Positions 209 through 18,042 are shown, counted from the first letter of the stretch. The stretch: 32,000 nt of DNA from Dubosiella newyorkensis (GCF_001945605.1 NZ_MPKA01000087.1:1-32000), one strand, 5' to 3'. Notes: generated from the letters alone by a model not told the origin. A program made the numbers and translations.

Positions 209-3200
209 TTGTACATATTTATCTCATCGTTTATGTACATATTTATCTTATCGTCTACAGCGCAGGACAAAGCATCGCCGAAGATTGAAAAAGTCCAAGA
301 GGCGGCAGAGGGGCTATCGAAAACCGACATTGAAACTAAGATCGAAGCGGTCGACAAAGCGACCAGCAAGATCGAAAAGATCAAAGCGACCGCTTCAGGT
401 ATCGCGAAAAAACCGTTCGAGATCATTGCAACCATAAGAGACAAAGCAACGAGCAAGCTAGATTCGATCAAAACAAAAGCGGTGGCCATAGCTAAAAACC
501 CCCATATCCTTGTTGTGCAAGCAAAGGATGCCGCTGGCAACATCTTGGATGGGATCAAAAACAAGCTGAAAGGTCTGCAGAAAGAGGCTGATGATACGAG
601 CCGAAGCATGAGCGCCATTAAATTCGGCGCGCTCATGGAAGTCGGTAAAAAAGGTATTGGTTTGATCACGAGTCAATTTTCGGGATTCGTTGGAGAAATG
701 AACAACTCAAGCAAAGCCTGGAAGACATTCGAGGGGAATATGAAGGCTTTTGGAGCTTCAAGCGGAGAGATCGAGCGTGTAAGAGGGACACTATCCAAAT
801 TTGCGACAGAGTCTATATATAGCGCTTCCGACATGGCTAGCACGTATTCCCAGCTTTCGGCGGTCGGTATAAAAAACTGTGACAAGCTCGTCACCGGGTT
901 TGGCGGCCTTGCGGCAGCAGCTGAAAGCCCTCAGCAGGCTATGAAAACGTTGAGTCAGCAAGCGACACAGATGGCGGCAAAGCCAACTGTTGCCTGGGCG
1001 GATTTCAAGCTCATGCTTGAACAAACACCGGCAGGAATCGCCGCTGTCGCAAAACAGATGGGCATGACCACATCCGAGCTGATTTCCAATGTGTCAGAAG
1101 GGACCGTCGCGACGCAAGATTTCTTTGACGCCATTTCAGCTGTTGGTAACAATGACGCCTTCGGTAAAATGGCCACCCAGTATAAAGGTGTGGATGAGGC
1201 GATGCAGGGGCTGATGGAAACACTGCAAGTCAAACTTGCTCCGGCATTTGATAAGCTAAGCCAGGTGGGGATCGATGCGATTTCCAAGCTCGCGGACGTC
1301 ATCGACAGCTTCTCTCTAGATCGGTTTTCAACGGTCATCAACAATGTTAAAAAGACGTGGGACAATTTCAAAAACGGATTTTTAAATACTGGCGCTATAG
1401 AGGCTGTAAAGGCCGCATTTAACGGTTTGGGGGATATGATCGGAAGGGTGGCTACCTCCTTGTCTGGCGATGCGGCGAATGGAGCGAAAACGTTCGGGGA
1501 AGTCATCGGATCGGTGGCGCGCTTTATTGCGGATGCCGTAACGGCTATCGCGGATTTAGATGCAAAAACAGGCGGAGTCGTCGGCAAACTCGCGGCTGGC
1601 GTTGGCGCCGTCATGCTTTTTTGCGGATCGTTCAATAGATTGAAATCCCTCGCATCTGGCGCTCTCGGAAGCGTTTTTTCTTTATTGAAAAAAGCATTAC
1701 CGAATCCATTCAAAAAATTGCCATCGGGGGCAGCGCCGCCATTAAATCAAACAAAAAGCAAAGTGGCGCAATGCGTCGACTCCATTGGAAATATGTTTAA
1801 GGGTATTGGCACCGGGATCAGCACGGCGTTCAAAGGGGTCGGAAAAGGAATCAGCACGGCGTTCCGTGGCATTTCTTCGGCTATCTCTAGTTTGAATCCG
1901 GTTGGAGTGCTGGCATTTGCTGGAGTGGTCGCCACCCTGACGGCGGCGTTCCTTGCGTTGGCCGCGTGTAAAGATATCGTGTTGCCGTTCCTTCAGGGGC
2001 TGGCCGATATTATGACTGGCGTACTAAATACCGCAGTTCAAATTTTTGTGGAAGCGCTGAATCAGTTGGCTCCGATACTGCCAATCATCGCAGAATCATT
2101 GGCGAAGCTATCTCCATTAGTCACGGCTTTTGGGGAAGCGCTTTCGGCGGTAATCGAAGCCATTGGCACGGCTATCGCTACGATCGTTGAGGCTTTGACG
2201 CCAGTGATCGAGATCATCGCAAACATGTTCACGAATATCGTTCAGATCATCGCGAATGCGATTACACAAATTATTTCAGTATTGGCTCCATACATTCCGG
2301 AAGTAACAAAAATGGTGGAAGCGACCAGCCAAGCCGTACAAGCAATTTGCGACGCATTTACGAACCTCGTTAATCAAGTCAACCCAGCGTTGGAGAACTT
2401 GAGAAACATTGTTGAAACCGTATTCAGTGGTGTCTGCGACGTCTTGAATGAGTTTAAAGGGATCGTCGACTCGGTGTTCGAAGGCGTTTCGGGTGTTTTC
2501 GAATCGTTTGGAAATATGGTCAATAATGTCTTGTCTGGTGTGGCGAGTGTGATCGACTCGATCGGTAATGCATGCCTGAATGCGGGAAAAGGGTTTGACC
2601 TTTTGGCACGGGGAGTGGAAAGGTTGACGGGGCTCAATCTGTTTGATATGGGTGCGAGCCTAGCAGCTGTCGCGACAGGCGTAGGGGCTATTGCTGCAAA
2701 TGCTTTGAACCTAGGCGATACCGGAGCACAGATGCAGTTATTGGCGACTGGACTTACTATGATTGCAAACAATGTAGAAAGCATAGTTTCAGCAAGCGCA
2801 CAGATGCCTCAAGTTGTTGCCCAGTTCCAGAATATGAGTACCTTGAGCGGGCCATTGTCCTCTGCGTCATCAGCCTTGACTAGCTTTGCTGCCTCGGCTG
2901 CTGCAGCCGGAGTTCTTCTGGTGGCGGCGAGCGCAAGCATGGCGATCCTTGGATCTGCTGTGAAAACATGCGCTTCGTCTATGTCGTCTTTAAACGGTCC
3001 GGTTCAAGCTTTATCAACCGGACTGCAAAGCCTTGGAAGTATGATTACCGCAGCGATCTCTCGCTTTGCTTCGCTGTCCTCTTCGGCAATATCTTCTTTT
3101 GCCCAAGTCGGACAGGGGGCTGTAAAAGGGACAAGCCAAGTTAAATCCGCCTTAAACCAAATGATCCAGGCGATGAATCAAGCAGCGAATAAAGCAAAAA

Positions 3201-3781
3201 GTGCAGGAACACAGATCGGGAACGGGATCTCCAATGGAGTGCGTTCTGGAATGGCTAAACTGCCTTCGATCGCTTCTAGCGCTTTAGCATCGATGTTTAA
3301 TGTTTTGAGCGCCGCTAGAGGGCGGGCTTATTCCTGTGGAGCGTATATTGGTCAAGGACTCGCTTCTGGACTGAATGCGTCTGTGGGTGCGGTCCAAGCT
3401 GCAGCCGCACGACTGGCAGCGGCGGCCGATGAAGCCATCCGGGCGAAGGCTCGGATCAATTCGCCTTCTAAGGTTACGGCCGAGGATGGGCGGTATATTG
3501 GACTGGGACTAGTAAAAGGAATCGAAGGGACATATCGGCAAGTCCAAGGCGCGATCGACAACATCATGGATCTAACTGCTATGGCCGCGGATCCAATGGC
3601 ATTTGCATTCGCGGGCGGGCAATTCACACAGGCGTCGGATTACTCGTATGGGATCAATGTCGCCGTAGATGTTCCACTCTATGTAAACGGTCGTGAATTC
3701 GCAAAAGCGACCTCGGAAGACTACGAGGATGTCACAGAGAAACGATCGAAATTTTTGAAAAAAATGAAAGGAGAACGATAA
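209..3781 (+). CDS. Phage tail tape-measure protein, 5' end apparently truncated or interrupted
   Basis: 1190-codon ORF, Ala/Gly/Ser-rich with long hydrophobic stretches and N-terminal DKATSKIE-IK-type coiled repeats. The motif ESIYSASDMASTYSQLSAVGI is typical of TP901-type tape-measure cores, and the gene sits directly upstream of Dit/Tal. The ORF-track start at 209 is a TTG without SD inside the 24-bp repeats. No credible start exists before about residue 130. Confidence 0.85.
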   Translation: MYIFISSFMYIFILSSTAQDKASPKIEKVQEAAEGLSKTDIETKIEAVDKATSKIEKIKATASGIAKKPFEIIATIRDKATSKLDSIKTKAVAIAKNPHILVVQAKDAAGNILDGIKNKLKGLQKEADDTSRSMSAIKFGALMEVGKKGIGLITSQFSGFVGEMNNSSKAWKTFEGNMKAFGASSGEIERVRGTLSKFATESIYSASDMASTYSQLSAVGIKNCDKLVTGFGGLAAAAESPQQAMKTLSQQATQMAAKPTVAWADFKLMLEQTPAGIAAVAKQMGMTTSELISNVSEGTVATQDFFDAISAVGNNDAFGKMATQYKGVDEAMQGLMETLQVKLAPAFDKLSQVGIDAISKLADVIDSFSLDRFSTVINNVKKTWDNFKNGFLNTGAIEAVKAAFNGLGDMIGRVATSLSGDAANGAKTFGEVIGSVARFIADAVTAIADLDAKTGGVVGKLAAGVGAVMLFCGSFNRLKSLASGALGSVFSLLKKALPNPFKKLPSGAAPPLNQTKSKVAQCVDSIGNMFKGIGTGISTAFKGVGKGISTAFRGISSAISSLNPVGVLAFAGVVATLTAAFLALAACKDIVLPFLQGLADIMTGVLNTAVQIFVEALNQLAPILPIIAESLAKLSPLVTAFGEALSAVIEAIGTAIATIVEALTPVIEIIANMFTNIVQIIANAITQIISVLAPYIPEVTKMVEATSQAVQAICDAFTNLVNQVNPALENLRNIVETVFSGVCDVLNEFKGIVDSVFEGVSGVFESFGNMVNNVLSGVASVIDSIGNACLNAGKGFDLLARGVERLTGLNLFDMGASLAAVATGVGAIAANALNLGDTGAQMQLLATGLTMIANNVESIVSASAQMPQVVAQFQNMSTLSGPLSSASSALTSFAASAAAAGVLLVAASASMAILGSAVKTCASSMSSLNGPVQALSTGLQSLGSMITAAISRFASLSSSAISSFAQVGQGAVKGTSQVKSALNQMIQAMNQAANKAKSAGTQIGNGISNGVRSGMAKLPSIASSALASMFNVLSAARGRAYSCGAYIGQGLASGLNASVGAVQAAAARLAAAADEAIRAKARINSPSKVTAEDGRYIGLGLVKGIEGTYRQVQGAIDNIMDLTAMAADPMAFAFAGGQFTQASDYSYGINVAVDVPLYVNGREFAKATSEDYEDVTEKRSKFLKKMKGER
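210..257. repeat. Tandem 24-bp direct repeat, two copies, 22/24 identical
   Basis: Copy 1 is TGTACATATTTATCTCATCGTTTA (210-233) and copy 2 is TGTACATATTTATCTTATCGTCTA (234-257). Each begins with the palindrome TGTACA. This could be a transposase or regulator binding array. Confidence 0.9.
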
Positions 3782-3782
3782 A

Positions 3783-5324
3783 ATGTATGAATTTCACGAT
3801 TTAATGCCTGCCACTAAAGGCGAGGTCAAAGATCGTATGGCTGAATCCTTCTCCTTTAACGGGGTCTGGATCGAAGACGAGATACCACAATTCGTCGTGA
3901 CCGGAACGACCGGTCGTGAGCTGATGGAAGCCGAACTTGATACTTTCGAGGTCGGCTTTTCCAACGGCTCTAAATACAGAAAAAAGCGCTATCCGGAAAG
4001 AAAGATCACAGTGCATTACATGATGGGCGCGCAAACAGATCACGATTTTCGGCAGGCTTATAACAAGCTGAACGCCCTGCTTGATCCAGAGCAGGCGCAG
4101 CTTATCTTTGCCGATGAACCGGATAAATACTTTGTGGCGACAAAAACCGAAAACTCGACCGTAGAACCAGGCAAGAATTTTGTTGTCGGCGAGATCGTGT
4201 TTACTTGTACAGATCCTTTGAAGTATTCTACCGTCACTAAGTCGTTTACAGCCACTCTGATCGAGGGAGTGCTTACCGCAAACATCGAAAATAAAGGAAC
4301 CGCAGCAGTCCCGATCGATTACAAGATCCACATGAACCATGAAAATGGATACATCGGGATCGTTTCGGAATCAGGGGCCATGCAGTATGGAAAAAAAGAA
4401 GAGGCGGACGGCAAGATCGTGGAAATGAATGAACGACTCTTGACCATGACAAACTTTTTTAACAAAGCAGATGATGGCGCATCCGGCGTGGACTATATGC
4501 ATCCAAACTATGATGCAACAGGAACTTTAGCTGTTGTCAATTGGTGGGATCAACAATGGCTTAGCTTTGGCAGTGCCGGCCCGAATCCAGGACAGGCTAT
4601 GACAGGTGGTCAGCGCACTGTAGCGGTACCTGCCGATTCGAATGGACACGTAGGGGCGAAGAATTTTTACTCTTACTTTTTTGTGGTTATGTGGGCTGGT
4701 CTGATGGGGCAAGTTGGAGAGTTTAACATCAATTGGTTGACAGCCGATAATAAACAGATTGCCGGTGTCAACTGGTATAAACAAGATCTCTCTGGTAATA
4801 CCGCCCACTACGAGTTATGGAGCGATGGAAAGATCCTTGCGACTTACTCATACGAATCCAGTCATGAAACCAACAAGAACCCTTGGTGGAGAACAAATGG
4901 GCACTGCGATCTGCGAAAAGTCGGCCGAAAGCTTACTTTCTACTGGTGGGCAACGTACCCATCATTCGAGATCCCCGAAATTGAAAACTGGGAATGCGCC
5001 AAAATCTCAATGGCATTCAAATGCCATCCGGTTTATCGGAACAGGTTGGTTACTCATATGGGTATCCGAAGCTTTATCTTTGATAAGCTAGGTGTACAGC
5101 ACTGGAAGGACGTACCGAACCGATATCCAGGAAACGCTGATATGATCGTGAAAGGCAACGAGGGCAAGATGTATTTTAGAGGGATGCCGAGGCCGCAGGA
5201 TGAGATGACGGGCACCAAGTACTTTCTGGCCAAACCGGGTGTAAATAAGGTTGAGTTTTATCACTCGTCTTTTAGTTCACCGGCGCCGACGATCACTGCA
5301 GAAATCAGGGAGGCATGGTTATGA
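3783..5324 (+). CDS. Distal tail protein (Dit, Sipho_tail family) with a long C-terminal extension
   Basis: ATG lies 2 nt after the tape-measure stop. The N-terminal pattern FSFNGVW...ITVHYMM...FTCTDPLKYS matches siphovirus distal tail proteins. At 513 aa it is about twice the minimal Dit size. Confidence 0.75.
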   Translation: MYEFHDLMPATKGEVKDRMAESFSFNGVWIEDEIPQFVVTGTTGRELMEAELDTFEVGFSNGSKYRKKRYPERKITVHYMMGAQTDHDFRQAYNKLNALLDPEQAQLIFADEPDKYFVATKTENSTVEPGKNFVVGEIVFTCTDPLKYSTVTKSFTATLIEGVLTANIENKGTAAVPIDYKIHMNHENGYIGIVSESGAMQYGKKEEADGKIVEMNERLLTMTNFFNKADDGASGVDYMHPNYDATGTLAVVNWWDQQWLSFGSAGPNPGQAMTGGQRTVAVPADSNGHVGAKNFYSYFFVVMWAGLMGQVGEFNINWLTADNKQIAGVNWYKQDLSGNTAHYELWSDGKILATYSYESSHETNKNPWWRTNGHCDLRKVGRKLTFYWWATYPSFEIPEIENWECAKISMAFKCHPVYRNRLVTHMGIRSFIFDKLGVQHWKDVPNRYPGNADMIVKGNEGKMYFRGMPRPQDEMTGTKYFLAKPGVNKVEFYHSSFSSPAPTITAEIREAWL

Positions 5325-8300
5325 TCAAACTCACATCTCGAATTGCAATTCTAGACCAGAATGATACTGTTGTGGCTTTCCTGGACAATAACGTTCCTGA
5401 TGGTCTTCCTTTCTGGGATGATGAGCTACACGAGTATCTGGAAGGAACGAGCAACACGTTTACTTTTAAAACGGACGCAAAGCATCCCGACTCTTTGCAC
5501 CTTGTTGAGGGCTATAAGATCGCTTTTAAAACCGATCGCAGAGACTACTATCTCAATATCATGATCGTGCATCGCGACGAGAACGAAGTCGAGATCGAAG
5601 CGTGGTCCACGAACCTGGAATTGCTGAACGAACAGGTTTCGGGAATCGATCCGGGAGAGGCGCATTCGTTTTTGTGGTATAAGAATAAGTTTGATCCTGA
5701 AAACACCGTGCAGATCGGCTTAAACGAGGTCAGCGACAAGCAAATAAAGAACAAATGGGACGGCGAAAACACCGTCCTTTCTCGTTTATACAGTTTGGCC
5801 AACGTGTTTGATGCCGAGCTCGAATTTGTGCCGCAGCTCAATCAGGATTACTCCTTGAATAAGATCGTTATGAACGTATATCGTGCGCATTCCGACACCG
5901 TACAAGGCATTGGAAAAGCGAATGTCTCTAACCTTGTGTACGGCCGTGAGATCAAAGGAATCAAGAAAACAAGCGATATCACCGACCTGTATACCTGCAT
6001 CTATCCACATGGCGGAACGATCGAAGGCAGCGATTCCAAGATTGATATATCGGGCGTTAGTCATACGGTTAAAGATAAAGATGGAAGAGTCGAATTCTTT
6101 ACGGATGGTGCATTGATCCGTGCGCCTCTCGCTCGTGATCGTTTCCCGTCTTTTATGAGCAAATCACAGGACCGCTATGTCCTTGTCCACTGGGATTGCG
6201 ATGTTACGGATAAGGAAATGCTGTATGGTCGAGCACTAGCCGAGCTGAAAAAGAACTGCACGCCGAAGGTCACTTACGAAATCGAAGGCTATGCAGATAC
6301 TGGAATCGGCGATACGGTGCGGATCACAGACGAGGAGTACAACCCGATCTTGTACTTGGAAGCACGTGTGACGGAGCAGGTGCGAAGCATCACCGATGAA
6401 TCAAGAAATAAAACGATTTACTCGAACGTCGAGGTCTTGAAGTCAGAAGTCGATTCGTCCTTGATGGCACGAGTCGAAGCTTTGATCAAAGAAAACAAGG
6501 TATACATCGGGCAGATCATGAGCGACAACGGCATCCAGTTTGTCAACGGGGAAGGTAGTACGACACTGACCGCGCAGGTCATGGATGGCGTCGTTGACAT
6601 TGCTGATCAGTATCAAATCGTGTGGAAGAAAGATGGAACACAGATCGCTACAACAAAAACAATCATCGTTTCTTCTGGCGATTTTGGCGCGCAAGCCGTA
6701 TACGGCTTTGAGGCGATCAAGGACAGCAAGATATATGCACGGGCCGAGGTAACATTGACCAATGTGCATGACGGTGTGACGCCAGAGCCTCTTTACTTGC
6801 ATATTCGCTATTCGAACGATGGAGGGCAGACCTTTACTGGCAACAGTGGCAAGACGGAAGGCAAATGGATGGGGCAGTATAGCGATCATCTGGAAGCGGA
6901 CAGCGAAAAGCCGAGCGACTACACCTGGGCAAAGATCCGAGGCGATGATGGGCAGTCTCTCGTGAGCATGACGAGGGAATTTTACATGTCGACCAGCAAC
7001 ACAGCTCAAGAGGGCGGATCATGGAGCGCTACTCCACCGACATTTGATGCAGCTAAATATCTTTGGGTGCGGTTTAAGGCTGTCTATAAAAACCCGGACG
7101 CTATTGCTTACTCTGATCCTGAGCTTGACGGCACATGGAGCGCCACACTGCAGGCAATCGACACCGCCAATCAGGCAGCGACAAGCGCAAGCAACGCAAG
7201 CCAGAGCGCACAGAATGCAGCGCAGCAGGCCGGAGAAGCCGTTAATAAAGCGCAGGAGATCGAGCAGGAGATCGGCCCGATCAAGACCGGAATCCAGGAA
7301 GCGAAAGATGCGGCGGCCGAAGCAAAGCAGGATGTGGCGGATGCGACCGAACAAATCCTTTTGGATATTTCGGGATCATATGCGACAAAGAGCGAAATGG
7401 CAGACATGGAAGGCGATCTGCAAACGCAGATCACGGCGAACGCCGACGGGCTGAAAAGCAAGGTATCGAACACAGAGTACCAGCAAAACAAGGATGCGAT
7501 TGACGCGGAGTTGCTCAAACAAAATCAGGCTCTCCAAAAGGCGCAATCGAACCTTGCGGAGCTGCAATCCAATCAATCGGAAGCGAACCAAAAGCTCACT
7601 AAGGCCGAAGCAGACTTGAAAGCAGCCAAAGACGCTGTGACCGCACTCGAATCTGACCAGGCGACGACCACGGAACAGCTGAACGCCGCTAAAACGGCAC
7701 TCAATGCCGCACAGCAAGCGGTGGACAAAGCGCAGGCTGACGTGACACAGGCGAAAAAAGACATCGCCACAGCGCAGGGGCAGATCAGCGGGATCCAGGA
7801 TGGCATCACGGACTTGACAAGCCGGATAACGACGGCGGAAACAGGAATTGAGCAGAACTCGCAGGCGATTGCTTTACGGGCGACGAAGACCGAAGTCAAT
7901 ACGGCGATCCAAGGGGCGAAGGACTACACCGATGCCCAACTCAAGGTGGAGGCGGGCAAGATCACGCAGTCGGTCAACTCGGTTAGTACGAAGGTCGACA
8001 AGCTCACATCGCAAAAACAAGAAACTTATTACTACCAATCCACATCCAACACCACACAAACAGGAGGATCGTGGAGCACGACCAAACCAAGCGAAGCATC
8101 TGGAAAATACATCTGGATGAAGATCAAGTTTACTTTCGTCGACGGAACGACAAGCGAAACATCACCAATCTGTATGACGGGTGCTACTGGAGCGCCGGGA
8201 AGCCCGGGTGCAACAGGGAAGGGTGTTAAGTCTACGGCAATCACTTACCAATCCGGCACATCGGGTACGACAGCGCCAACAGGATCGTGGAACGCTACGG

Positions 8301-9070
8301 TGCCAGCAGTAAGCCAAGGTCAATATCTCTGGACGAGGACGATCCTCACCTATACAGACAACACGACAAGTACAAGCTATTCTGTATCCTACATCCCTAA
8401 AAACGGGACCAACGGCACCAATGGTACATCTGTGACTGTATCGAGCACATCGGTTACTTATCAAAAGTCTTCGAGCGGAACTACTGCACCTACTGGTACA
8501 TGGGTTAATTCGCCTCCTGCAACAAATGCAGGCGAATATCTATGGACGAAAACGGTTGTCAATTATTCGGATGGAAAATCTACGACCGCTTACAGTGTGT
8601 CTAGAAACGGTTCTAATGGTACAAACGGAACCAATGGTACTTCTGTTACTGTCAAAAGCACAGCCGTCACTTATCAGGCAGGTGCTTCTGGGACAACGGT
8701 TCCTACTGGCACTTGGTCAACAACGATTCCGACGGTTCCGGTCGGACAGTTTTTGTGGACGAGAACGATCGTCACTTATTCGGACAACAAAACGACCACG
8801 AGCTATTCCGTATCAAGGCAAGGGACAGATGGGACAGATGCTTTTCTGATCGTCTACGACACGCCAAACGGATTGGAGTTTACCGCCTCACAAAAGACCT
8901 TGACCATTACAGCCAAGGTTTTTAAAGGCGGTAAAGAGCTTACCGACACTCAAGTCAACGCTTTCGGTGCGATCAAGTGGTATCAAGTCGGAGTGGCTGC
9001 AGCGATCGCAACGGGCAAGACATTGACCCTTACAACGCCGAAAGAAGTCTATGCGACGCTGGAGAATTAG
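5321..9070 (+). CDS. Tail-associated lysin-like / tail fibre protein (Tal; phage minor structural protein N-terminal region) with a coiled-coil and repeated C-terminal modules
   Basis: ATG 5321 overlaps the Dit stop as ATGA and lies 7 nt after AGGGAGG; the ORF-track ATG at 5315 is only 1 nt from the SD. The N-terminus MIKLTSRIAILDQNDTVVAFLDN...YYLNIMIV resembles the prophage-tail family. A long Ala/Gln/Glu coiled-coil spans about 7140-8020, followed by four or five YxxSxSGTTxPTGxWSxxxPxxxxGxYLWTRT modules. Confidence 0.8.
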   Translation: MIKLTSRIAILDQNDTVVAFLDNNVPDGLPFWDDELHEYLEGTSNTFTFKTDAKHPDSLHLVEGYKIAFKTDRRDYYLNIMIVHRDENEVEIEAWSTNLELLNEQVSGIDPGEAHSFLWYKNKFDPENTVQIGLNEVSDKQIKNKWDGENTVLSRLYSLANVFDAELEFVPQLNQDYSLNKIVMNVYRAHSDTVQGIGKANVSNLVYGREIKGIKKTSDITDLYTCIYPHGGTIEGSDSKIDISGVSHTVKDKDGRVEFFTDGALIRAPLARDRFPSFMSKSQDRYVLVHWDCDVTDKEMLYGRALAELKKNCTPKVTYEIEGYADTGIGDTVRITDEEYNPILYLEARVTEQVRSITDESRNKTIYSNVEVLKSEVDSSLMARVEALIKENKVYIGQIMSDNGIQFVNGEGSTTLTAQVMDGVVDIADQYQIVWKKDGTQIATTKTIIVSSGDFGAQAVYGFEAIKDSKIYARAEVTLTNVHDGVTPEPLYLHIRYSNDGGQTFTGNSGKTEGKWMGQYSDHLEADSEKPSDYTWAKIRGDDGQSLVSMTREFYMSTSNTAQEGGSWSATPPTFDAAKYLWVRFKAVYKNPDAIAYSDPELDGTWSATLQAIDTANQAATSASNASQSAQNAAQQAGEAVNKAQEIEQEIGPIKTGIQEAKDAAAEAKQDVADATEQILLDISGSYATKSEMADMEGDLQTQITANADGLKSKVSNTEYQQNKDAIDAELLKQNQALQKAQSNLAELQSNQSEANQKLTKAEADLKAAKDAVTALESDQATTTEQLNAAKTALNAAQQAVDKAQADVTQAKKDIATAQGQISGIQDGITDLTSRITTAETGIEQNSQAIALRATKTEVNTAIQGAKDYTDAQLKVEAGKITQSVNSVSTKVDKLTSQKQETYYYQSTSNTTQTGGSWSTTKPSEASGKYIWMKIKFTFVDGTTSETSPICMTGATGAPGSPGATGKGVKSTAITYQSGTSGTTAPTGSWNATVPAVSQGQYLWTRTILTYTDNTTSTSYSVSYIPKNGTNGTNGTSVTVSSTSVTYQKSSSGTTAPTGTWVNSPPATNAGEYLWTKTVVNYSDGKSTTAYSVSRNGSNGTNGTNGTSVTVKSTAVTYQAGASGTTVPTGTWSTTIPTVPVGQFLWTRTIVTYSDNKTTTSYSVSRQGTDGTDAFLIVYDTPNGLEFTASQKTLTITAKVFKGGKELTDTQVNAFGAIKWYQVGVAAAIATGKTLTLTTPKEVYATLEN
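8027..8841 (+). repeat. Four tandem coding modules of about 68-71 aa inside Tal, separated by short collagen-like Gly-X-Y / NGT triplet spacers
   Basis: Modules start at about 8027, 8225, 8429 and 8642, giving periods of 204 and 213 nt. Spacers are GATGAPGSPGATGKG, NGTNGTNGT, NGSNGTNGTNGT and QGTDGTDA. A more divergent copy lies at about 6980-7130. Confidence 0.8.
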
Positions 9071-9084
9071 AAAGGAGTGAGAGA

Positions 9085-9870
9085 ATGGAAATCAAATTAA
9101 CGTCTGATATGTTTGAGCAAGGTAAACTCGATCCTTATGCTTCTGTCGGAAGTGACTATGCGGCATGTAAAGATTCTTCCACGCACTCGCTTCACGAGAA
9201 AAGAGTTCGTTCAAAAGATCTTATTCCTTGCGGATCAGACAGAAAAATCACCTTTTCTGGAGATAATTCTCATTTAATGATATGGATTCTTGAATTCGAC
9301 AAAGATAAAAAATATTTAGGAATTGGCAAAGGATGGAATTACTTTACAACTTATACGCTAAAGTTTGAAACTGCTTATGTTGCATTTATGATTGCTAGAA
9401 ATCCAAATAGCGCATATCTTGATGTTTCGCTTTTAGATACCCTTTCGCTTATTCCCTACCACGATGATTGGATGTCCATTAAAGTCGACAGGTATCGAGG
9501 ACAATGTTCGACATGGGCTACTAAACCTTATTCTGATTGGGGTATTAAAGCTGGAGATGTTGTAACGTTTCAGATTCGAATCAAATCTACATCAGGCAAA
9601 AAGCTTCATGCTCGTATAGAGTGGTTCAATTCTGACAATGATAGAATTTCTATTTATCCTGAAACCGTACAAGTTATTGAGAACAGCGAAGGTGTTTCAA
9701 CCATAACGCTAACAGTTCCATCGGATTATTCACAAATGGGATTGTGGTTAGATGCTAATCTAACAACGCAAACTCATACGGAAATAACTACAGAGCTTGT
9801 CAAAGCTGATATCTTTGTAATCGGTTCGAGCATTCCTTCGAATCTCGACCGGGGGGGGTACTTCAGATGA
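9085..9870 (+). CDS. Hypothetical tail-fibre-associated protein (ORF A), beta-sandwich/carbohydrate-binding-like. Ends in a Gly run encoded by a G8 tract
   Basis: ATG 9085 lies 7 nt after AAAGGAG, so the ORF-track start at 8977 inside Tal is rejected. 261 aa in a markedly AT-rich segment. The C-terminus is SNLDRGGYFR, and its stop overlaps the next ATG as ATGA. Confidence 0.65.
   Translation: MEIKLTSDMFEQGKLDPYASVGSDYAACKDSSTHSLHEKRVRSKDLIPCGSDRKITFSGDNSHLMIWILEFDKDKKYLGIGKGWNYFTTYTLKFETAYVAFMIARNPNSAYLDVSLLDTLSLIPYHDDWMSIKVDRYRGQCSTWATKPYSDWGIKAGDVVTFQIRIKSTSGKKLHARIEWFNSDNDRISIYPETVQVIENSEGVSTITLTVPSDYSQMGLWLDANLTTQTHTEITTELVKADIFVIGSSIPSNLDRGGYFR
9851..9858 (+). repeat. Homopolymeric G8 tract, 8 nt upstream of the ORF A/ORF B ATGA junction
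   Basis: Read directly: gacc GGGGGGGG tacttcagATGA. The -1 frame is open from the tract into ORF B. Confidence 0.95.
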
Positions 9871-10430
9871 GTAACTACCCTGAACTTCAAATCGTTAATA
9901 CTCCCGACGGGTTAGAATACGCACGTGGTTACAATATCTTATCTGTTTCGAAAGCCGTGATACAAGAAATCGGAAGAAGTGGAGCTTGTTCGGTTTCAAG
10001 GGTCGTTTCAGGCGGAGGAATAGATATTACTGTAAATTCCGATACAAGTGGAATAGCAGTACCAAGGTTTCAATCCTTGAATCTTCCCTATGGTTTAACT
10101 GATTATCGTTTAACTTTCGATATGTGGGCGGAAATTCCCGATGGGGGAAATTCTTTAATTTGCAATGTAGGTATTTGTGATGCCAATTCCAAAGGATTTG
10201 CTATTCCAACAACACGAACTGAATTTTCAAACGTACATCATCCAAGGAATTCCTATATTTTTGATAACACCTATCACGGTTTTGTGGATTTTGAAATCAG
10301 AGCTTCTTCAGGAGCAATGAAAGCCGGAACGGTAATTCATATCCGAAACATCATGGTTTCTTTAAGTTCAGATAAATTTGTGTATAGATCAAACCCTGCC
10401 GATCTGGTCGGGGGGGGGGGTTGCCTATGA
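9867..10430 (+). CDS. Hypothetical tail-fibre-associated protein (ORF B), beta-sandwich-like. Ends in a Gly run encoded by a G11 tract
   Basis: 187 aa and AT-rich. Start ATG 9867 overlaps the ORF A stop. The C-terminus is NPADLVGGGGCL, and its stop overlaps ATG 10427 as ATGA. Confidence 0.6.
   Translation: MSNYPELQIVNTPDGLEYARGYNILSVSKAVIQEIGRSGACSVSRVVSGGGIDITVNSDTSGIAVPRFQSLNLPYGLTDYRLTFDMWAEIPDGGNSLICNVGICDANSKGFAIPTTRTEFSNVHHPRNSYIFDNTYHGFVDFEIRASSGAMKAGTVIHIRNIMVSLSSDKFVYRSNPADLVGGGGCL
10410..10420 (+). repeat. Homopolymeric G11 tract, 6 nt upstream of the ORF B/ORF C ATGA junction
   Basis: Read directly: ggtc GGGGGGGGGGG ttgcctATGA. The -1 frame is open from the tract into ORF C. Confidence 0.95.
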
Positions 10431-10960
10431 GCATTATTGCTAGAGGACTACCTCTTACGGTTCGGAACAGCATTGATGAAGCGATCCAGAATACCGCATC
10501 TCAGCTGGAACAGCGCCTGTCAACGTCGATCGCACAGACCGGGGAAAGCATAAAAAACGAGGTTTCGCAGCAATACTATGCGAAGGGAGACACTGATAAA
10601 TTGATTGCAGAAGCATCAACGATTCTTACCCAAAAATACAACAGCTTCGAGATGTCGTTTAATTCCTTCAAACAGATGGTAGACAGCAACCAAAACCTGA
10701 CCAACCAGGAGTTTGCTACGATCACTAAGTTTATCCGTTTTATCGATGGGAACATCTTTTTAGGGGAGAACGGAAACAACCAGATGCTCAAGATCGCAAA
10801 AGATCGGATCTCTTTTCTCCAGGGGCAAGCGGAGGTTGCTTACATCTCCGACAGCACGCTGTACATCTACGACGGCGTGTTTTTAAATTCTTTGCGCATT
10901 GGAAACTTTGCCTTCGTTCCGCGAGCAAATGGATCCTTGGACTTCAAGAAAGTGAGGTGA
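10427..10960 (+). CDS. Tail fibre C-terminal-module-like protein (ORF C)
   Basis: ATG 10427 is preferred over the ORF-track TTG at 10421. Coiled N-terminal half, then LKIAKDRISFLQGQAEVAYISDSTLYIYDGVFLNSLRIGNFAFVPRANGSLDF. I recognise that motif from the C-terminal end of long Firmicute phage minor structural/fibre proteins. GC content returns to about 53 % here. Confidence 0.65.
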   Translation: MSIIARGLPLTVRNSIDEAIQNTASQLEQRLSTSIAQTGESIKNEVSQQYYAKGDTDKLIAEASTILTQKYNSFEMSFNSFKQMVDSNQNLTNQEFATITKFIRFIDGNIFLGENGNNQMLKIAKDRISFLQGQAEVAYISDSTLYIYDGVFLNSLRIGNFAFVPRANGSLDFKKVR

Positions 10961-10966
10961 TGATCT

Positions 10967-13441
10967 ATGGCCTACGGAAATTGGCATGGCGCTGTATGGC
11001 GCAATGTTTGGGCCAGCGCCTACTACTCGATCGATGTGCAGTGGGACTACTGTCAAGATATTGAGGCAAATAAAACAAAGATCTCGATGATGGCGATCCG
11101 TCTCCATCGTCTGAACAGCGCTTACTATTTCTACAATGCTTACGGCAAGGTAGGGATCGGAGACTTTAATGGTGGCAAGTTTGAGTCGACAGTATCAATG
11201 GACGTCAGAAATACGACGCTTCAAACTTTTGCCCTGACAAACCGGCACAGCGAAGTCGAGCACAATCCTGACGGATCGTGGCCAACGGGCAAAAAATGGG
11301 GTCAATGGATGTTCAAGGCAGGCATCAATGGATACAACACGCCAGAGGTGGGATGGACAGTATTCAATATTGATGGATCGATCCCTAAGATCCCTAGAGC
11401 AACCGTTCCAACAGTGAGCGCAGAAAGCATCAATATGGGATCTGAGGTCACGATCAACCTCCCAAAAGCAACCAGCAGTTTCACACACGATATTTTTTAC
11501 AAATATTCCAGCGATTCCAGTTATACAACTCTTGCAACTGGTGTAACTGGGACATCACAAAAATGGACGCCGCCAGTATCTTTAGCAAGCAAGATACCAA
11601 GTGCAACAAGCGGAACATGGAATATTTTGGTAAGAACAAAGTCCGGCAGCACGATCATAGGCGATAAGAGCATCAATATAACGCTCAGCGTCCCATCAAA
11701 CATTGTGCCGAGCATCTCATCTGTGGCCGTAGCTGAAGCAACGGCCGGGATCGCAGCACAATTCGCCGCCTATATACAAGGCAGGTCGACTTTTAAAGTG
11801 ACGGTGGCCGCAGCCGGAAACCAGGGAAGCACGATCAAAAGCTATTCGGTAAAAGCGGATGGCAAAACATACTCAAGGGATAGTAACGTCTTTACAACAC
11901 AGACCATTAACGGTTCTGGAAATTTGAACGTCGTTGCTACTGTTACCGACTCACGGGGGCGAACGGCATCGAAAACAGTAACGGTCGCTGTGTCTGCTTA
12001 TTCATCGCCATCTGTCACGACCTTCAAAGCCGTACGGTGTACAAGTGCAGGCGTGGAAAACGAAGAAGGAACAGCAGTCAAGATTTTGTTTAATTTCTCG
12101 ATCGCTGCAATGGGGAACAAAAACACACGATCTTTTAAAATCCAACAGCTTAATGGCAACACATGGACCGACATTCACACGATCACGGATTCGTATAGTA
12201 CGAATTCAAGCATCATCAAAACCGGTCCTTTTTCTGTGGACAGCAAATTCAGCTTCCGGGCTGTTGCGGCGGACTTTTTCACGAGCGCTACGGTGTACTC
12301 AGATGTATCGCCGTCTTTTGCGTTGATCAATTTCGGGGCAGGCGGTAAATCTTTAGCGTTTGGTGGAGTGAGCTCGAATGATGGATCATTTGAGTCGTAT
12401 ATGGCCACAAAAGTTTACAACAAATTTCAGGTTCCTATTGCCAAAGACTTAACTGATAATGGCGTACCTTTTGCGGGAGCTGGACCGGGATTAACCGACC
12501 TGACTCAATTATCGAATTATCGTAGCTTTATCGGAGCACTCGCTTTAAACGGCGTGTGGAATAATGTTTTGAGTATACGGCACAGAAATGGATATTCTGA
12601 TGGAAGCAATTACGGAATGTATATCCGAAGCGCCTTAACATCGAGCGGTTCCTTATTTTATCGCCAACAATATAGCGGTAATTGGGCGAGCGAAAGGATG
12701 ATTGTTGATAGCTGGAATTATCCAGAAGCAACCAAGCGTTATCACTATCGTTTTTATTGTCCTTCGGGAGGTGGCGCAAGATGGGTCCATATCGGCGATT
12801 TCCCATCAAATACCGGAGGGACAACACATGCGATTACGATTTATACCGGCAATGGGTTTAATGGTCGCTCAGATCAAAACAGTGAAATAGAAATTAGAAT
12901 CAAGCCTGCAGCCGAAAACTATGGGACTACTTTTTGGGTTAATGGGTATTATCATAATTCGATCCAAGTTAAAGTCTATACTCAGTCTACATCAACACCT
13001 TGCCAGCTTTGGGTATATTTCCCGTGGGCATGGTATTCTGGAAGCGTAGAGGTATATACAGAAGGAAGTTTTAACTTTAGTGGTGCCAATCAAACCGGAA
13101 CACCAGCGCAGCCAGCGAATACAGCAAACGCCCCAGTGGCGAATATAACCCCTGACATGCGAGGCTATCCAATCGGATCAGTTTTCGAATGCACTGCAGC
13201 TAGTATTTCGAACCCCGCAAATGTGATGGGTGGAACGTGGCAAGAAATTCGTGCTGTGTTTGCGAATATTAATAATTCGAATCAGGTTATTGATGTGGCG
13301 GGCGGCGCAACTGCTAATGGTACGAATATTGATTTATATGTTTTCAACGGATCGAATGCACAAAAGTTTTTGATACAAGGTTCGCCGGCTGGACAAAATA
13401 CAGCTCGACATGATCTTCGTATGTGGATTCGAACACAGTAA
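10967..13441 (+). CDS. DUF859-like siphovirus structural protein (putative baseplate/receptor-binding protein) with a C-terminal ricin-B-like lectin motif
   Basis: GAGGTG lies 7 nt upstream of the ATG. The N-terminus WRNVWASAYYSIDVQWDYCQDIEANKTKI..., IPKIPRATVPT and SSFTHDIFYKY match my recollection of the DUF859 family. The C-terminal QVIDVAGGATANGTNIDLYVFNGSNAQKFLIQ resembles a single ricin-type QxW subdomain. Confidence 0.7.
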   Translation: MAYGNWHGAVWRNVWASAYYSIDVQWDYCQDIEANKTKISMMAIRLHRLNSAYYFYNAYGKVGIGDFNGGKFESTVSMDVRNTTLQTFALTNRHSEVEHNPDGSWPTGKKWGQWMFKAGINGYNTPEVGWTVFNIDGSIPKIPRATVPTVSAESINMGSEVTINLPKATSSFTHDIFYKYSSDSSYTTLATGVTGTSQKWTPPVSLASKIPSATSGTWNILVRTKSGSTIIGDKSINITLSVPSNIVPSISSVAVAEATAGIAAQFAAYIQGRSTFKVTVAAAGNQGSTIKSYSVKADGKTYSRDSNVFTTQTINGSGNLNVVATVTDSRGRTASKTVTVAVSAYSSPSVTTFKAVRCTSAGVENEEGTAVKILFNFSIAAMGNKNTRSFKIQQLNGNTWTDIHTITDSYSTNSSIIKTGPFSVDSKFSFRAVAADFFTSATVYSDVSPSFALINFGAGGKSLAFGGVSSNDGSFESYMATKVYNKFQVPIAKDLTDNGVPFAGAGPGLTDLTQLSNYRSFIGALALNGVWNNVLSIRHRNGYSDGSNYGMYIRSALTSSGSLFYRQQYSGNWASERMIVDSWNYPEATKRYHYRFYCPSGGGARWVHIGDFPSNTGGTTHAITIYTGNGFNGRSDQNSEIEIRIKPAAENYGTTFWVNGYYHNSIQVKVYTQSTSTPCQLWVYFPWAWYSGSVEVYTEGSFNFSGANQTGTPAQPANTANAPVANITPDMRGYPIGSVFECTAASISNPANVMGGTWQEIRAVFANINNSNQVIDVAGGATANGTNIDLYVFNGSNAQKFLIQGSPAGQNTARHDLRMWIRTQ

Positions 13442-13516: not shown

Positions 13517-13690
13517 ATGAAACAAAGAGAGCTTATAAAGAGGCTAGGAAAACTTGGATTCCATTTTGAAAGACATGGCGCGAACCATGACATTTACACA
13601 GATGGAAAAACAAAAATTCCCATTCCAAGACACAAAGAAATAAAAGAAGCCTTAGCAAAAGCCATTATCGAACAAGCGGAGCTCAAATGA
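13517..13690 (+). CDS. hicA: HicA-family mRNA interferase toxin
   Basis: 57 aa: MKQRELIKRLGKLGFHFERHGANHDIYTDGKTKIPIPRHKEIKEALAKAIIEQAELK. It has the typical HicA length and the pattern L-K-LxKxGF...HG-NH.....IP-H.K..........I..Q. Strong SD AAGGAGG. It is below the ORF-track size cutoff. Confidence 0.8.
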   Translation: MKQRELIKRLGKLGFHFERHGANHDIYTDGKTKIPIPRHKEIKEALAKAIIEQAELK

Positions 13691-13728: not shown

Positions 13729-14106
13729 ATGAAAAAATTAGTATATCCGGCTGAATTTGTAAAGCAAGATGACGGATCTTATTTGGTGTTTTTTGTCGAT
13801 ATTCCCCAATGTATGACAGAAGGAAAAGATTTACCAAACGCGCTTTATATGGCTGAAGATTGCCTGAAAACATGGGCACAAGCAATGGTTGATGATGGAC
13901 TTTCATTACCAACAGCAACCAGCGGAGAAAACGCGAAACCAACAAAAGGGGGCTTTATTAGTCTAGCAACCGCAGAATTAAAAGACTCTAAGCCGGTGAT
14001 CAAATCAGTTAGCCTTCCTCATTGGATGGCTGACGAAGCAGCAAAAGCACATCTAAGTTTATCTGGCGTATTGCAAGAAGCACTTTCTCAAAAATTAAGT
14101 ATGTAG
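13729..14106 (+). CDS. hicB: HicB-family antitoxin with a C-terminal ribbon-helix-helix
   Basis: 125 aa. The N-terminus YPAEFVKQDDGSYLVFFVDIPQCMTEGKDLPNALYMAEDCL is the HicB RNase-H-like fold signature. The C-terminal VSLPHWMADEAAKAHLSLSGVLQEALSQKL is CopG/RHH-like. It sits immediately downstream of hicA. Confidence 0.8.
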   Translation: MKKLVYPAEFVKQDDGSYLVFFVDIPQCMTEGKDLPNALYMAEDCLKTWAQAMVDDGLSLPTATSGENAKPTKGGFISLATAELKDSKPVIKSVSLPHWMADEAAKAHLSLSGVLQEALSQKLSM

Positions 14107-16984: not shown

Positions 16985-17061
16985 GGCGGTTGTGGTGAAG
17001 TGGTTAACACAACGGATTGTGGCTCCGTCATTCGCGCGTTCGATCCGCGTCAGCCGCCCCA
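16985..17061 (+). tRNA. tRNA-His (anticodon GTG) with the extra G-1 and an encoded CCA
   Basis: Hand-folded cloverleaf. Acceptor GCGGTTG/CAGCCGC, with G-1 opposite C73. Anticodon arm ACGGA-TTGTGGC-TCCGT. T arm GCGCG-TTCGATC-CGCGT. It closely resembles Bacillus tRNA-His. Confidence 0.95.
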
Positions 17062-17123: not shown

Positions 17124-17678
17124 ATGAAAAAACTCTTCATTCTTTGTGTGTTCCTTTTGGCTGGCTGCGCTACACAAACTCCATCAAAAACCCCATCCGC
17201 ATGCTCCGAAGAGCAAGCTTGTACGATCGGTGATCAAAACACTGTTGAAACGATGCAGCCATTGTCTTTTGAAGAGGCCCTTTCCTTTTTCAAAGAGAAA
17301 AAAAGCGGTCTATTGTATTTTGGCTTTGAAAATTGTCCATGGTGTCAAGAAGCGCTCCCGATCCTTCGAGAAGAAGCTAAACGACAAAACGTTTCGATCC
17401 ATTCGATCTTGACACGCGATGAAAATAATGAACTTCTTTATACGGAGGAACAAAAACAAGAAATCATTCCTTATCTTCAAGACTATATGTCCAAGAACGA
17501 GGAAGGTGAGCTCACGCTCTATGTGCCTCTTGTCGTTGTCGTCAAAGATGGAAAAGCGATCGAAGGTCATGTTGGAACGGTGGATGACCACGATGCCCAT
17601 GCGCGTAAAATGACGGAAGAAGAAAAACAAGAACTTCAAAAAAAATACGAAGATATGCTTGCGCAATTATCTTCGTAA
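17124..17678 (+). CDS. Thioredoxin-fold lipoprotein (CxxC)
   Basis: Signal peptide with lipobox LLAGC. The CPWC motif sits in the context LLYFGFENCPWCQEALP. 184 aa. Confidence 0.75.
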   Translation: MKKLFILCVFLLAGCATQTPSKTPSACSEEQACTIGDQNTVETMQPLSFEEALSFFKEKKSGLLYFGFENCPWCQEALPILREEAKRQNVSIHSILTRDENNELLYTEEQKQEIIPYLQDYMSKNEEGELTLYVPLVVVVKDGKAIEGHVGTVDDHDAHARKMTEEEKQELQKKYEDMLAQLSS

Positions 17679-17912
17679 TAAGACTTCTGCCCGAAATAAG
17701 TACCAGCCATTCAGCAAGAGAAGTGGTGTAAATAGATCATACCCCATACCTGAAATCAATTTTACGAACGGATGGGAAACAAGTGTAGGAAACAGGAAAG
17801 GGAATACCCACGATACCCAGATCGCGACCACAAAAAGGAAAAGATTCACAAGAAATAAGATCCGAGTCATCACTTTCGAAGTATGCAGATCCGTAAAAAT
17901 CAATTTAAACAT
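17667..17912 (-). CDS. Small integral membrane protein, 81 aa, unknown function
   Basis: Strong minus-strand SD AAGGAGGG lies 6 nt before ATG 17912. Two or three hydrophobic segments. Its 3' end overlaps the convergent lipoprotein gene by 12 nt. Confidence 0.5.
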   Translation of the reverse strand: MFKLIFTDLHTSKVMTRILFLVNLFLFVVAIWVSWVFPFLFPTLVSHPFVKLISGMGYDLFTPLLLLNGWYLFRAEVLLRR

Positions 17913-18042
17913 AGGGCTCCCTCCTTTTTCTATGATTATAAGAAATTCGATTCAAGAAGGGGACTCAGACACTCTTTGTGTGAAATTATGTGAATTAATA
18001 AAACGCGGCTCATTTTTGAGTAAGAATTCGTATTTATAAAGT

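Follow-up and report, generated by a model that had tools for sequence, protein, structure and literature searches.

A 32,000-nucleotide (nt) stretch of the genome of Dubosiella newyorkensis (NZ_MPKA01000087.1:1-32000, assembly GCF_001945605.1; hereafter the window) contains three consecutive open reading frames (ORFs), here called A, B and C, in the tail-fibre region of a prophage. A and B both end in a long run of guanines, and the joints between the ORFs are designated J1 (A/B) and J2 (B/C) (Table 1). The comparison with related loci suggests that these G runs are probably hypermutable poly-G contingency tracts, which fuse or split receptor-binding modules of the tail. As judged from sequence, the locus looks like a reversible genetic switch for the grip of the virus on its host.

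In the window, the eight G of J1 put A and B out of frame, and G9 would fuse them; the eleven G of J2 put B and C out of frame, and either G9 or G12 would fuse them. With one additional G in both tracts the three ORFs become a single A-B-C ORF of 625 amino acids (aa) with the junction peptides ..DRGGVLQMSNYPEL.. and ..VGGGGLPMSIIARG..; VGGGGLPMSIIAR has also been named as a junction peptide. The loss of one G leads to the short tails ..RGGTSDE and ..GGGVAYEHYC. A first-pass annotation of this DNA had described the coordinates of both tracts, the ORF ends, the ATGA overlaps, these two tails and a fusion of about 625 aa, all of which were reproduced from the sequence. It had also noticed no other long G/C runs in the 32 kb, and J1 and J2 are indeed the only G/C homopolymers of at least 6 nt in the window. 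In dinucleotide-preserving shuffles of the window 0.27 G8 matches are expected, compared to the two tracts observed (five overlapping matches), and 0.01 matches to the composite 'G8 + 4-9 nt + ATGA'. A contingency locus is expected to carry a homopolymer of at least about 7 nt within a coding sequence or where it ends; G8 and G11 belong to the terminal codons of A and B, respectively. The content of guanine plus cytosine (GC) amounts to 0.382 in A, 0.402 in B, 0.457 in C, 0.501 in the upstream Tal gene and 0.455 in the whole window. These figures bear out the AT-richness of A and B that had been noted before; the rise in GC around G11 was also found, but it is gradual and does not form the sharp composition step that had been described.

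Among relatives, the tracts are conserved in position and variable in length, as expected of a contingency locus. Thirty related loci of about 3-14 kb each were fetched, with module identities to the window of 24-99%; when C was used to scan collections of genomes, metagenomes and viral contigs, six loci only were obtained. Poly-G tracts occupy the same positions in almost all 30 loci, including some with a DNA identity of only about 80%; a few lineages have an interrupted joint in place of a pure tract. Outside the joints, no other G/C run longer than 6 nt was found in the fetched sequence of these loci. The 5' flank of J1 is kept wherever an A module of the window type precedes, with single substitutions in a few loci (ctcggcc in L009), and relatives with other modules upstream of J1 have other flanks. 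A pattern scan of IMG/VR returned the same four contigs and L032, an unrelated high-GC chance match that was discarded.

Some relatives contain a third joint, J0, which lies upstream of A-B-C and shares the design 'G(n)-N8-NTGA' with the other joints. It lies between a variable module X (about 300 aa) and a module Y of 95 aa, which corresponds to the C-terminal 93 aa of the Tal protein in the window (residues 287-378 of the X-Y protein of L010 are 74% identical to Tal residues 1159-1251). J0 is without counterpart in the window; in the relatives it occurs both fused (378 aa) and split (283-302 + 95 aa). In the metagenome-assembled genomes L030 (3987-3995) and L031 (2879-2887), both from NCBI, a 115-aa upstream module is joined to B by G9. 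This joint reads attctcG9tcattATGA, with a spacer of only 5 nt. The combination of poly-G and ATGA is thus also found behind upstream modules of an unrelated kind.

The joints of the relatives represent all linkage states. A search with the hypothetical ABC fusion retrieved the natural full fusions P0001 (627 aa, 75% identity) and P0005 (616 aa), the A-B fusion P0002 (448 aa, 99%) and the B-C fusion P0003 (363 aa, 99%) together with many others of 360-377 aa. Among the loci, all three modules are fused in L001 (Firmicutes bacterium M10-2), L005, L009, L013-15 and L026; AB+C is found in L007, L010-12 and L016-19, A+BC in L008 and A+B+C in the window, L002-4 and L006. The products are one protein of 625-631 aa in the fused state versus 448+177, 261+363-370 or 261+187+177 aa in the others. 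A change in tract length alters the product predictably, which is a further property of contingency loci, and none of the split alleles has a damaged downstream ORF. The comparison of homologous prophages, which had been proposed earlier to find fused or split arrangements, yielded both of them, including alleles with otherwise identical protein.

Length differences were also observed between near-identical genomes, as in contingency loci. L005 and L007 differ by two substitutions in 5739 bp, and the sole indel between them is G9 versus G11 at J2; L002 and L006 (98.8% identical) carry G8 and G10 at J1, respectively. D. newyorkensis proteins that are otherwise identical occur in every joint state, each on 3-96 contigs, the contigs being those of the 15 members listed of the 83 in the 90%-identity protein cluster which holds the window's A and B, and not phylogenetically independent. 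At J2, the lengths G8, G9, G10, G11 and G12 were present on 27, 120, 186, 28 and 11 contigs. This unimodal spread is what stepwise slippage would give. Every linkage state is common in nature within this one host species. The same mix was found in a second lineage (627, 450-454, 362 and 185-189 aa), in a third lineage (626, 449-453 and 261-264 aa) and at J0 (378, 283-285 and 95 aa). Of the three candidate explanations in the first-pass annotation, slipped-strand length variation fits best to these data, with all linkage states in otherwise identical alleles.

An apparent polymorphism could also arise from homopolymer miscalls or assembly errors which split one ordinary fibre gene of 625 aa. 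Although both window tracts are exactly one G short of the in-frame length, which is the usual direction of under-calling, the exact split proteins of the window are present on two contigs of the collection and in two NCBI protein accession sets, where all are annotated as 'hypothetical'. G runs of 8 nt or more are error-prone; yet identical out-of-frame alleles recur in three to four independent short-read assemblies (four runs for L016-19 and three metagenomes for L002-4), as well as in L010 and L012 and, for the window state, on two contigs. The out-of-frame tract copies make up 15 of the 34 non-redundant copies and fall on both sides of the in-frame length. Out-of-frame lengths in about half of the copies and in both directions are beyond any consensus error rate. 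Moreover, none of the 24 A/T runs of 7-8 nt in the window breaks a gene, and miscalls leave the conserved internal starts and the pure tracts unexplained. In view of the repeated finding of the same alleles, the out-of-frame state of about half of the copies and the harmless A/T runs, the length polymorphism is, by comparison of the assembled sequences, real at the DNA level. We consider a sequencing artefact highly improbable; the recurrent alleles disfavour it for the family, and for the window alone, as known from its assembled sequence, a miscall is improbable.

Two further differences were seen among near-identical loci. Between L002 and L003, which share 99.97% identity, an (AC)n run of the DUF859 gene, about 910 nt past the start of C, shows a 2-nt indel; this could be a second repeat polymorphism or an assembly error. 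The Tal gene of L004/L021, which represent one IMG/VR contig, is broken up into ORFs for 678 and 557 aa (886-2922 and 2968-4641), and in the near-identical L002 and L003 it is intact with 1251 aa.

The sequences around the tracts suggest that a split joint would not silence the downstream module. Each downstream module retains its start codon, which is ATG, or TTG at J0 in two loci. J1 fusions with a poly-G joint keep the methionine internally (..GVLxMSNYP..), and all natural fusions keep the methionine of C (..GGGLPMSIIARG.., as in ..GGGLPMSII..). The G runs end 8 nt upstream of the start codon at J1 and J0 and 6 nt at J2. The predicted duplexes between the tracts and the 3' end of the 16S rRNA have energies of -11.9 kcal/mol (J1) and -16.0 kcal/mol (J2), compared to -8 to -20 kcal/mol for canonical sites in the window. 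In L024/25, which are without an A module, B follows directly after the Tal stop and a canonical Shine-Dalgarno (SD) sequence, AGGAGGTG / ttAGGAGGTGggacgttATG, occupies the position of J1. The duplex energies and this replacement support the earlier suggestion that the G runs serve as SD mimics, and a restart at the internal ATGs with the poly-G as SD sequence is predicted.

A different use of the same sequence features would be recoding, in which -1 ribosomal slippage or stuttering of the RNA polymerase produces fused isoforms from a fixed genotype and the variation in DNA length is a secondary matter. At both joints of the window the downstream ORF has the -1 frame, which is open across the joint. 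However, the homologues are in frame (about half of the copies), -1 (G8, G11) or +1 (G10) at the same joints, and the conserved frame relation of a programmed -1 site is thus absent. Out-of-frame alleles in both the +1 and the -1 direction therefore make a dedicated frameshift site unlikely. The heptamer G GGG GGG formally corresponds to the slippery pattern X XXY YYZ, but it is a poor slippery sequence. Likewise, long homopolymers are able to cause transcriptional slippage, but G:C-rich codon-anticodon pairings and RNA:DNA hybrids are poor slippage substrates. A stimulatory RNA structure past the tracts was not detected, as the minimum free energies were no better than those of shuffled sequences (z +1.40 for 9845-9960 and +0.44 for 10404-10520). 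Programmed frameshifting, one of the candidates of the first-pass annotation, is disfavoured by the occurrence of both frames and by the lack of unusual RNA structure after the tracts. We regard recoding as quite improbable as the main explanation; low-level ribosomal or transcriptional slippage on G8-G13 may occur.

The modules connected by the joints resemble parts of distal tail proteins. Residues 72-168 of C match positions 842-938 of the 955 positions of phrog_588, the N-terminal part of which matches the window's Tal, and C also matches the C-terminal ends of phrog_1885 and phrog_10693. In an exhaustive profile-free search 1459 cluster representatives matched C (E<=1e-3). Among the best 150 of these 1459, nearly all matches to C end within about 10 residues of the C-terminus, in proteins of 140-1586 aa. 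In long homologues the N-terminus is formed by a Prophage_tail (Tal) domain, and in one of them a Pfam CBM_4_9 domain immediately precedes the C module; a few of the homologues are stand-alone C-like proteins. By these matches C represents the conserved module at the C-terminus of fibre proteins of the Tal type. The PHROG and homologue searches agree with the earlier observation that C bears a motif from the C-terminal end of long Firmicute fibre proteins, and together with the domain searches they support its description as a C-terminal module without its own body. Sequence searches of the PDB with A, B, C and a 22-sequence profile of C gave chance-level matches only. The AlphaFold2 model of C reached a predicted local distance difference test (pLDDT) score of 71 with a well predicted C-terminal beta domain, and Foldseek with this model returned nothing at E<0.07. 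A weak resemblance of C to a beta-helix fragment of phi92 gp138 was not used as evidence.

For A, a weak PHROG match to tail fibres was obtained, and A forms a beta-sandwich in the AlphaFold2 model of the natural fusion P0001. With this model, which has a mean pLDDT of 57 (70-88 in the B region), Foldseek retrieved tandem carbohydrate-binding modules (CBMs) of family CBM22 (4xup, E 1e-8), CBM4, CBM61 and the CBM of BiXyn10A, at target-normalised TM-scores of 0.5-0.59. Judged from this low-confidence model, both A and B resemble carbohydrate-binding jelly-rolls. Among the relatives, at least five versions of B that do not align with one another are found, all with the conserved ends MSNYPxLPI.. 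and ..YRPNPADLVGGG, and A is optional or has other modules in its place. The modules also differ in their affiliations: compared to the window, L007 is 98% identical in A, 99% in B and 74% in C, and L016 is 93% identical in A, 28% in B and 99% in C. These mosaic boundaries fall on the poly-G joints, and the conserved joint sequences appear to be recombination joints for cassette swaps.

The proposed mechanism starts from slipped-strand mispairing during prophage or phage replication, which would change the tract length. A change by one or two G would toggle a joint between the fused state, one polypeptide with a Gly-Gly-Gly linker, and the split state, in which the upstream ORF would stop at the joint or within about 10 codons of it and the downstream module would restart at its own ATG with the G run as SD sequence. 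Since nothing is lost in the split state, this would be a fuse/split switch and not a plain ON/OFF switch. Two tracts, or three in some relatives, would thereby allow ABC, AB+C, A+BC or A+B+C from one prophage lineage. The outcome would likely be a heritable and reversible variation in the sugar-binding modules chained on the tail tip, a bet-hedging on adsorption and host range. The joint sequences would double as recombination joints for cassette swapping. An extended form of this mechanism is a combinatorial system, in which two to three poly-G tracts, each also a ribosome-binding site, continually give one Gram-positive prophage lineage 4-8 reversible and heritable tail-tip architectures with different adsorption, no module is ever off and the joints are swap connectors. 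We put this forward tentatively, as a possibility held at clearly less than even confidence.

Several points weigh against the interpretation of the tracts as a contingency system. The tract lengths were read from assembled contigs, and the contig counts, as stated above, are not phylogenetically independent. The restart at the internal ATGs is so far a prediction. Identical assemblies from one study share identical tract lengths, and switching is therefore not extremely fast. The P0001 model has a low overall confidence, and Pfam searches with A, B and C gave nothing significant, including no CBM in A or B. Finally, in the best-sampled allele J2 is in frame on about 35% of the contigs among the members listed, which is near the neutral one third. 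The length may therefore drift without selection; the value fits equally well a switch that is selected only at infection.

This last point also belongs to the main rival explanation, which accepts the polymorphism as real but functionally silent: the G runs would be kept as SD sequence, glycine linker and exchange joint, and their length would drift neutrally around the same fibre. The SD distance of the tracts, their replacement by a canonical SD sequence in L024/25 and the start codons conserved in all alleles are consistent with this, as are the mosaic breakpoints at the joints. However, a GGAGG motif or a linker of mixed codons would avoid the frameshift cost, and yet the pure G persists over about 20% DNA divergence. 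Although only 16.5% of the glycine codons in these genes are GGG, the joints consist of G alone, also across lineages in which the J2 flanks differ synonymously (aaaccctgcc, aaatccagcc, aaatccggcc, aaacccagcc). The four alleles with an interrupted tract ('locked') all have the in-frame state, with glycine retained via GGT, GGA or GGC codons (Table 1), and pure tracts nevertheless persist in most lineages. The locked alleles indicate that the protein needs just Gly-Gly(-Gly) and that the fused form is a functional state. Pooled over the joints, 19 of the 34 non-redundant copies are in frame versus one third expected (P ~0.006, a rough value as the lineages are related). Stand-alone C-like proteins in other phages would fit to a silent polymorphism, but the C module of other phages is, with few exceptions, a covalent part of the fibre. 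Altogether, we judge a silent polymorphism unlikely, and the contingency tracts that fuse or split the modules remain the probable explanation.

The element in the window is, by its gene content, a temperate siphovirus-type prophage of D. newyorkensis, a mouse-gut member of the Erysipelotrichaceae, because A, B and C coincide exactly with D. newyorkensis proteins and the genes are arranged in the order tape measure, Dit (Sipho_tail), Tal, A, B, C, DUF859, HicA/HicB, CBM_5_12 protein, holin and amidase. Past the amidase follow a tRNA-His and host genes including a lipoprotein gene, radC, mreC, mreD, polA and coaE. A blastn search with 8800-11300 against 50,697 GenBank phage records gave zero matches, and hence there is no annotated phage relative at the DNA level in these records. 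The tRNA-His (GTG; window 16986-17061) lies about 480 nt beyond the amidase at the apparent boundary of prophage and host, and is the probable attachment site of the prophage. The HicA/HicB toxin-antitoxin pair (window 13517-13690 and 13729-14106), located between the DUF859 gene and the lysis cassette, was found in several relatives and is missing in others, e.g. L010 and L013. An A8 run at 17638-17645 was considered as a frameshift joint between the ORFs 17124-17678 and 17614-18039 and rejected: the former is a complete thioredoxin-like lipoprotein ORF with a normal end, and the latter is K/R-rich, non-coding in appearance and empty in Pfam.

Table 1 Features of the fibre cassette in the window, design of the joints in relatives, and alleles of A and B in D. 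newyorkensis (contig numbers as defined in the text)
Feature	Location	Strand	Remarks
Tal-type tail-tip/fibre gene	5315..9070	+	1251 aa; matches phrog_6468 and phrog_588 'tail fiber; host specificity'; stop TAG, 14 nt upstream of ORF A
Canonical SD sequence AAAGGAG and spacer before ORF A	9071..9084	+	predicted anti-SD duplex -15.0 kcal/mol
ORF A	9085..9870	+	261 aa; AT-rich, variable, beta-rich; end ..PSNLDRGG + YFR; identical to D. newyorkensis WP_076341895.1
J1 5' flank gaatctcgacc	9840..9850	+	conserved in relatives (see text)
Poly-G tract J1	9851..9858	+	G8
ATGA, stop of A and start of B	9867..9870	+	from sequence
ORF B	9867..10430	+	187 aa; highly variable cassette; end ..DLVGGGGCL; identical to WP_076341896.1
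J2 5' flank aaaccctgccgatctggtc	10391..10409	+	codes for NPADLV; in all loci, variation synonymous only
Poly-G tract J2	10410..10420	+	G11
ATGA, stop of B and start of C	10427..10430	+	from sequence
ORF C	10427..10960	+	177 aa; identical to WP_076341897.1; long helix, then C-terminal beta domain (model)
DUF859 tail protein gene	10967..13441	+	824 aa; Pfam PF05895 9e-44, phrog_372; directly downstream of C
J1 (A/B), design			..aatctcgaccG(n)tactNNNNATGA..; G8, G9, G10 in loci, G11 in protein-cluster alleles
J2 (B/C), design			..gccgatctggtcG(n)t(t)gcctATGAGC..; G8, G9, G10, G11, G13 in loci, G12 in protein-cluster alleles
J0 (upstream of A-B-C, some relatives), design			..caaatttgcG(n)tcggttgtATGAGC..; context also ..NTGAGCACTAAAGC; G9, G10, G11
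J0 in L001	4334-4343		
J0 in L010	5681-5690		
J0 in L011	3218-3226		
J0 in L013	5681-5690		
J0 in L027	3681-3691		
J0 in L028	3682-3690		
J0 in L029	3682-3690		
Interrupted J1 in L016-19			GGAGGGGGG
Interrupted J2 in L024/25			GGGGGTGGT
Interrupted J2 in L026			TGTGGTGGT
Interrupted J2 in L028			GGAGGCGGC
A, end ..DRGGYFR			G8; at least 33+4 contigs
A, fused ..DRGGVLQMSNYP..			G9; at least 96+61+27+3 contigs
A, end ..DRGGGTSDE			G10; at least 8 contigs
A, end ..DRGGGYFR			G11; at least 7 contigs
B, end ..VGGGCL			G8; at least 27 contigs
B, fused ..VGGGLPMSII..			G9; at least 61+59 contigs
B, end ..VGGGVAYEHNC			G10; at least 96+90 contigs
B, end ..VGGGGCL			G11; at least 25+3 contigs
B, fused ..VGGGGLPMSII..			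G12; at least 11 contigs

For receptor-binding genes of phages, phase variation by homopolymers is, to our knowledge, documented in essentially a single case, the Fletchervirus phages of Campylobacter, and we know of little documentation of homopolymer phase variation in Erysipelotrichaceae. The tracts of Fletchervirus are said to switch the expression of a gene ON and OFF. In the present loci, unlike in Fletchervirus, the tracts lie at module boundaries with a conserved start/stop overlap 5-8 nt further on, and decide between fused and split rather than between present and absent; they also mark the boundaries of cassette exchange. Fletchervirus genomes are described, as far as citing papers convey the original work, to contain hypermutable polyG tracts (7-11) in receptor-binding genes and to form mixed phage populations (Sorensen et al. 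2021, Cell Rep 35:109214). On that partial account, the two systems have in common G runs (8-13 here) in receptor-binding or tail genes, frame shifts by changes in length and several tracts per genome. Fletchervirus are lytic myoviruses of a Gram-negative host, whereas the element described here is a temperate siphophage of a Gram-positive gut member of the Erysipelotrichaceae. A literature search gave no report of poly-G tracts in tail genes of Gram-positive phages, in gut-Firmicute prophages or in Dubosiella, and the nearest precedent is known via the citing papers; 'polyG' in a mycobacteriophage paper refers to polyglycine domains and not to nucleotide tracts.

Contingency loci with slippage at simple repeats, reversible frameshifts and bet-hedging have been reported for T2/T4 and other phages, and such repeats are under-represented in the tail-fibre genes of coliphages (Gomez, Barrick & Waters, bioRxiv 10.1101/2025.10.21.683753). 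Those loci are mostly short A/T repeats of at least 6 nt in defence-evasion and other genes, whereas the present ones are long G tracts in the fibre cassette only. Bacterial polyG/polyC phase variation, as in surface genes of Campylobacter, Neisseria, Haemophilus and Bordetella, shares the mutational mechanism, the length range and the unimodal spread, but the tracts here are prophage-borne and located at domain joints with restart signals. 'Evolved' Tal and Dit proteins with inserted CBMs are known from lactococcal, streptococcal and lactobacillal phages and from phages of the Bacillus cereus group (PMC9863714; PMC9128512). The present modules A and B resemble, in the model, such jelly-rolls on distal tail proteins of Gram-positive siphophages, and the C module is common to Tal-type proteins; in the evolved proteins the CBMs are fixed in one polypeptide, whereas here the CBM-like modules form separate cassettes and their covalent linkage is set by a mutable tract. 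A reversible or high-rate variation of the receptor-binding end, which is also possible in the prophage state, is shared with the Gin and Cin inversion systems of Mu and P1 and with the diversity-generating retroelement of Bordetella phage BPP-1. Unlike those, the present locus would need no recombinase or reverse transcriptase, and the linkage varies rather than the sequence or alternative C-termini. New in comparison to these precedents are the temperate siphophage of a Gram-positive host, the two to three serial tracts at module boundaries with restart signals and their overlap with the exchange joints.

If the proposed switch is true, the principle would extend to temperate phages of Gram-positive gut commensals and to the prophage state, in which lysogens could diversify their future virions. 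It would also follow a new logic, fused versus split with a built-in restart in place of ON/OFF. Software for gene calling and host-range prediction is liable to mis-annotate such fibres as a set of three hypothetical proteins, which happened in the NCBI annotation here. The tract length at the joints could mark phage-host dynamics in metagenomes of the mouse gut, and as D. newyorkensis is culturable, the hypothesis is directly testable.

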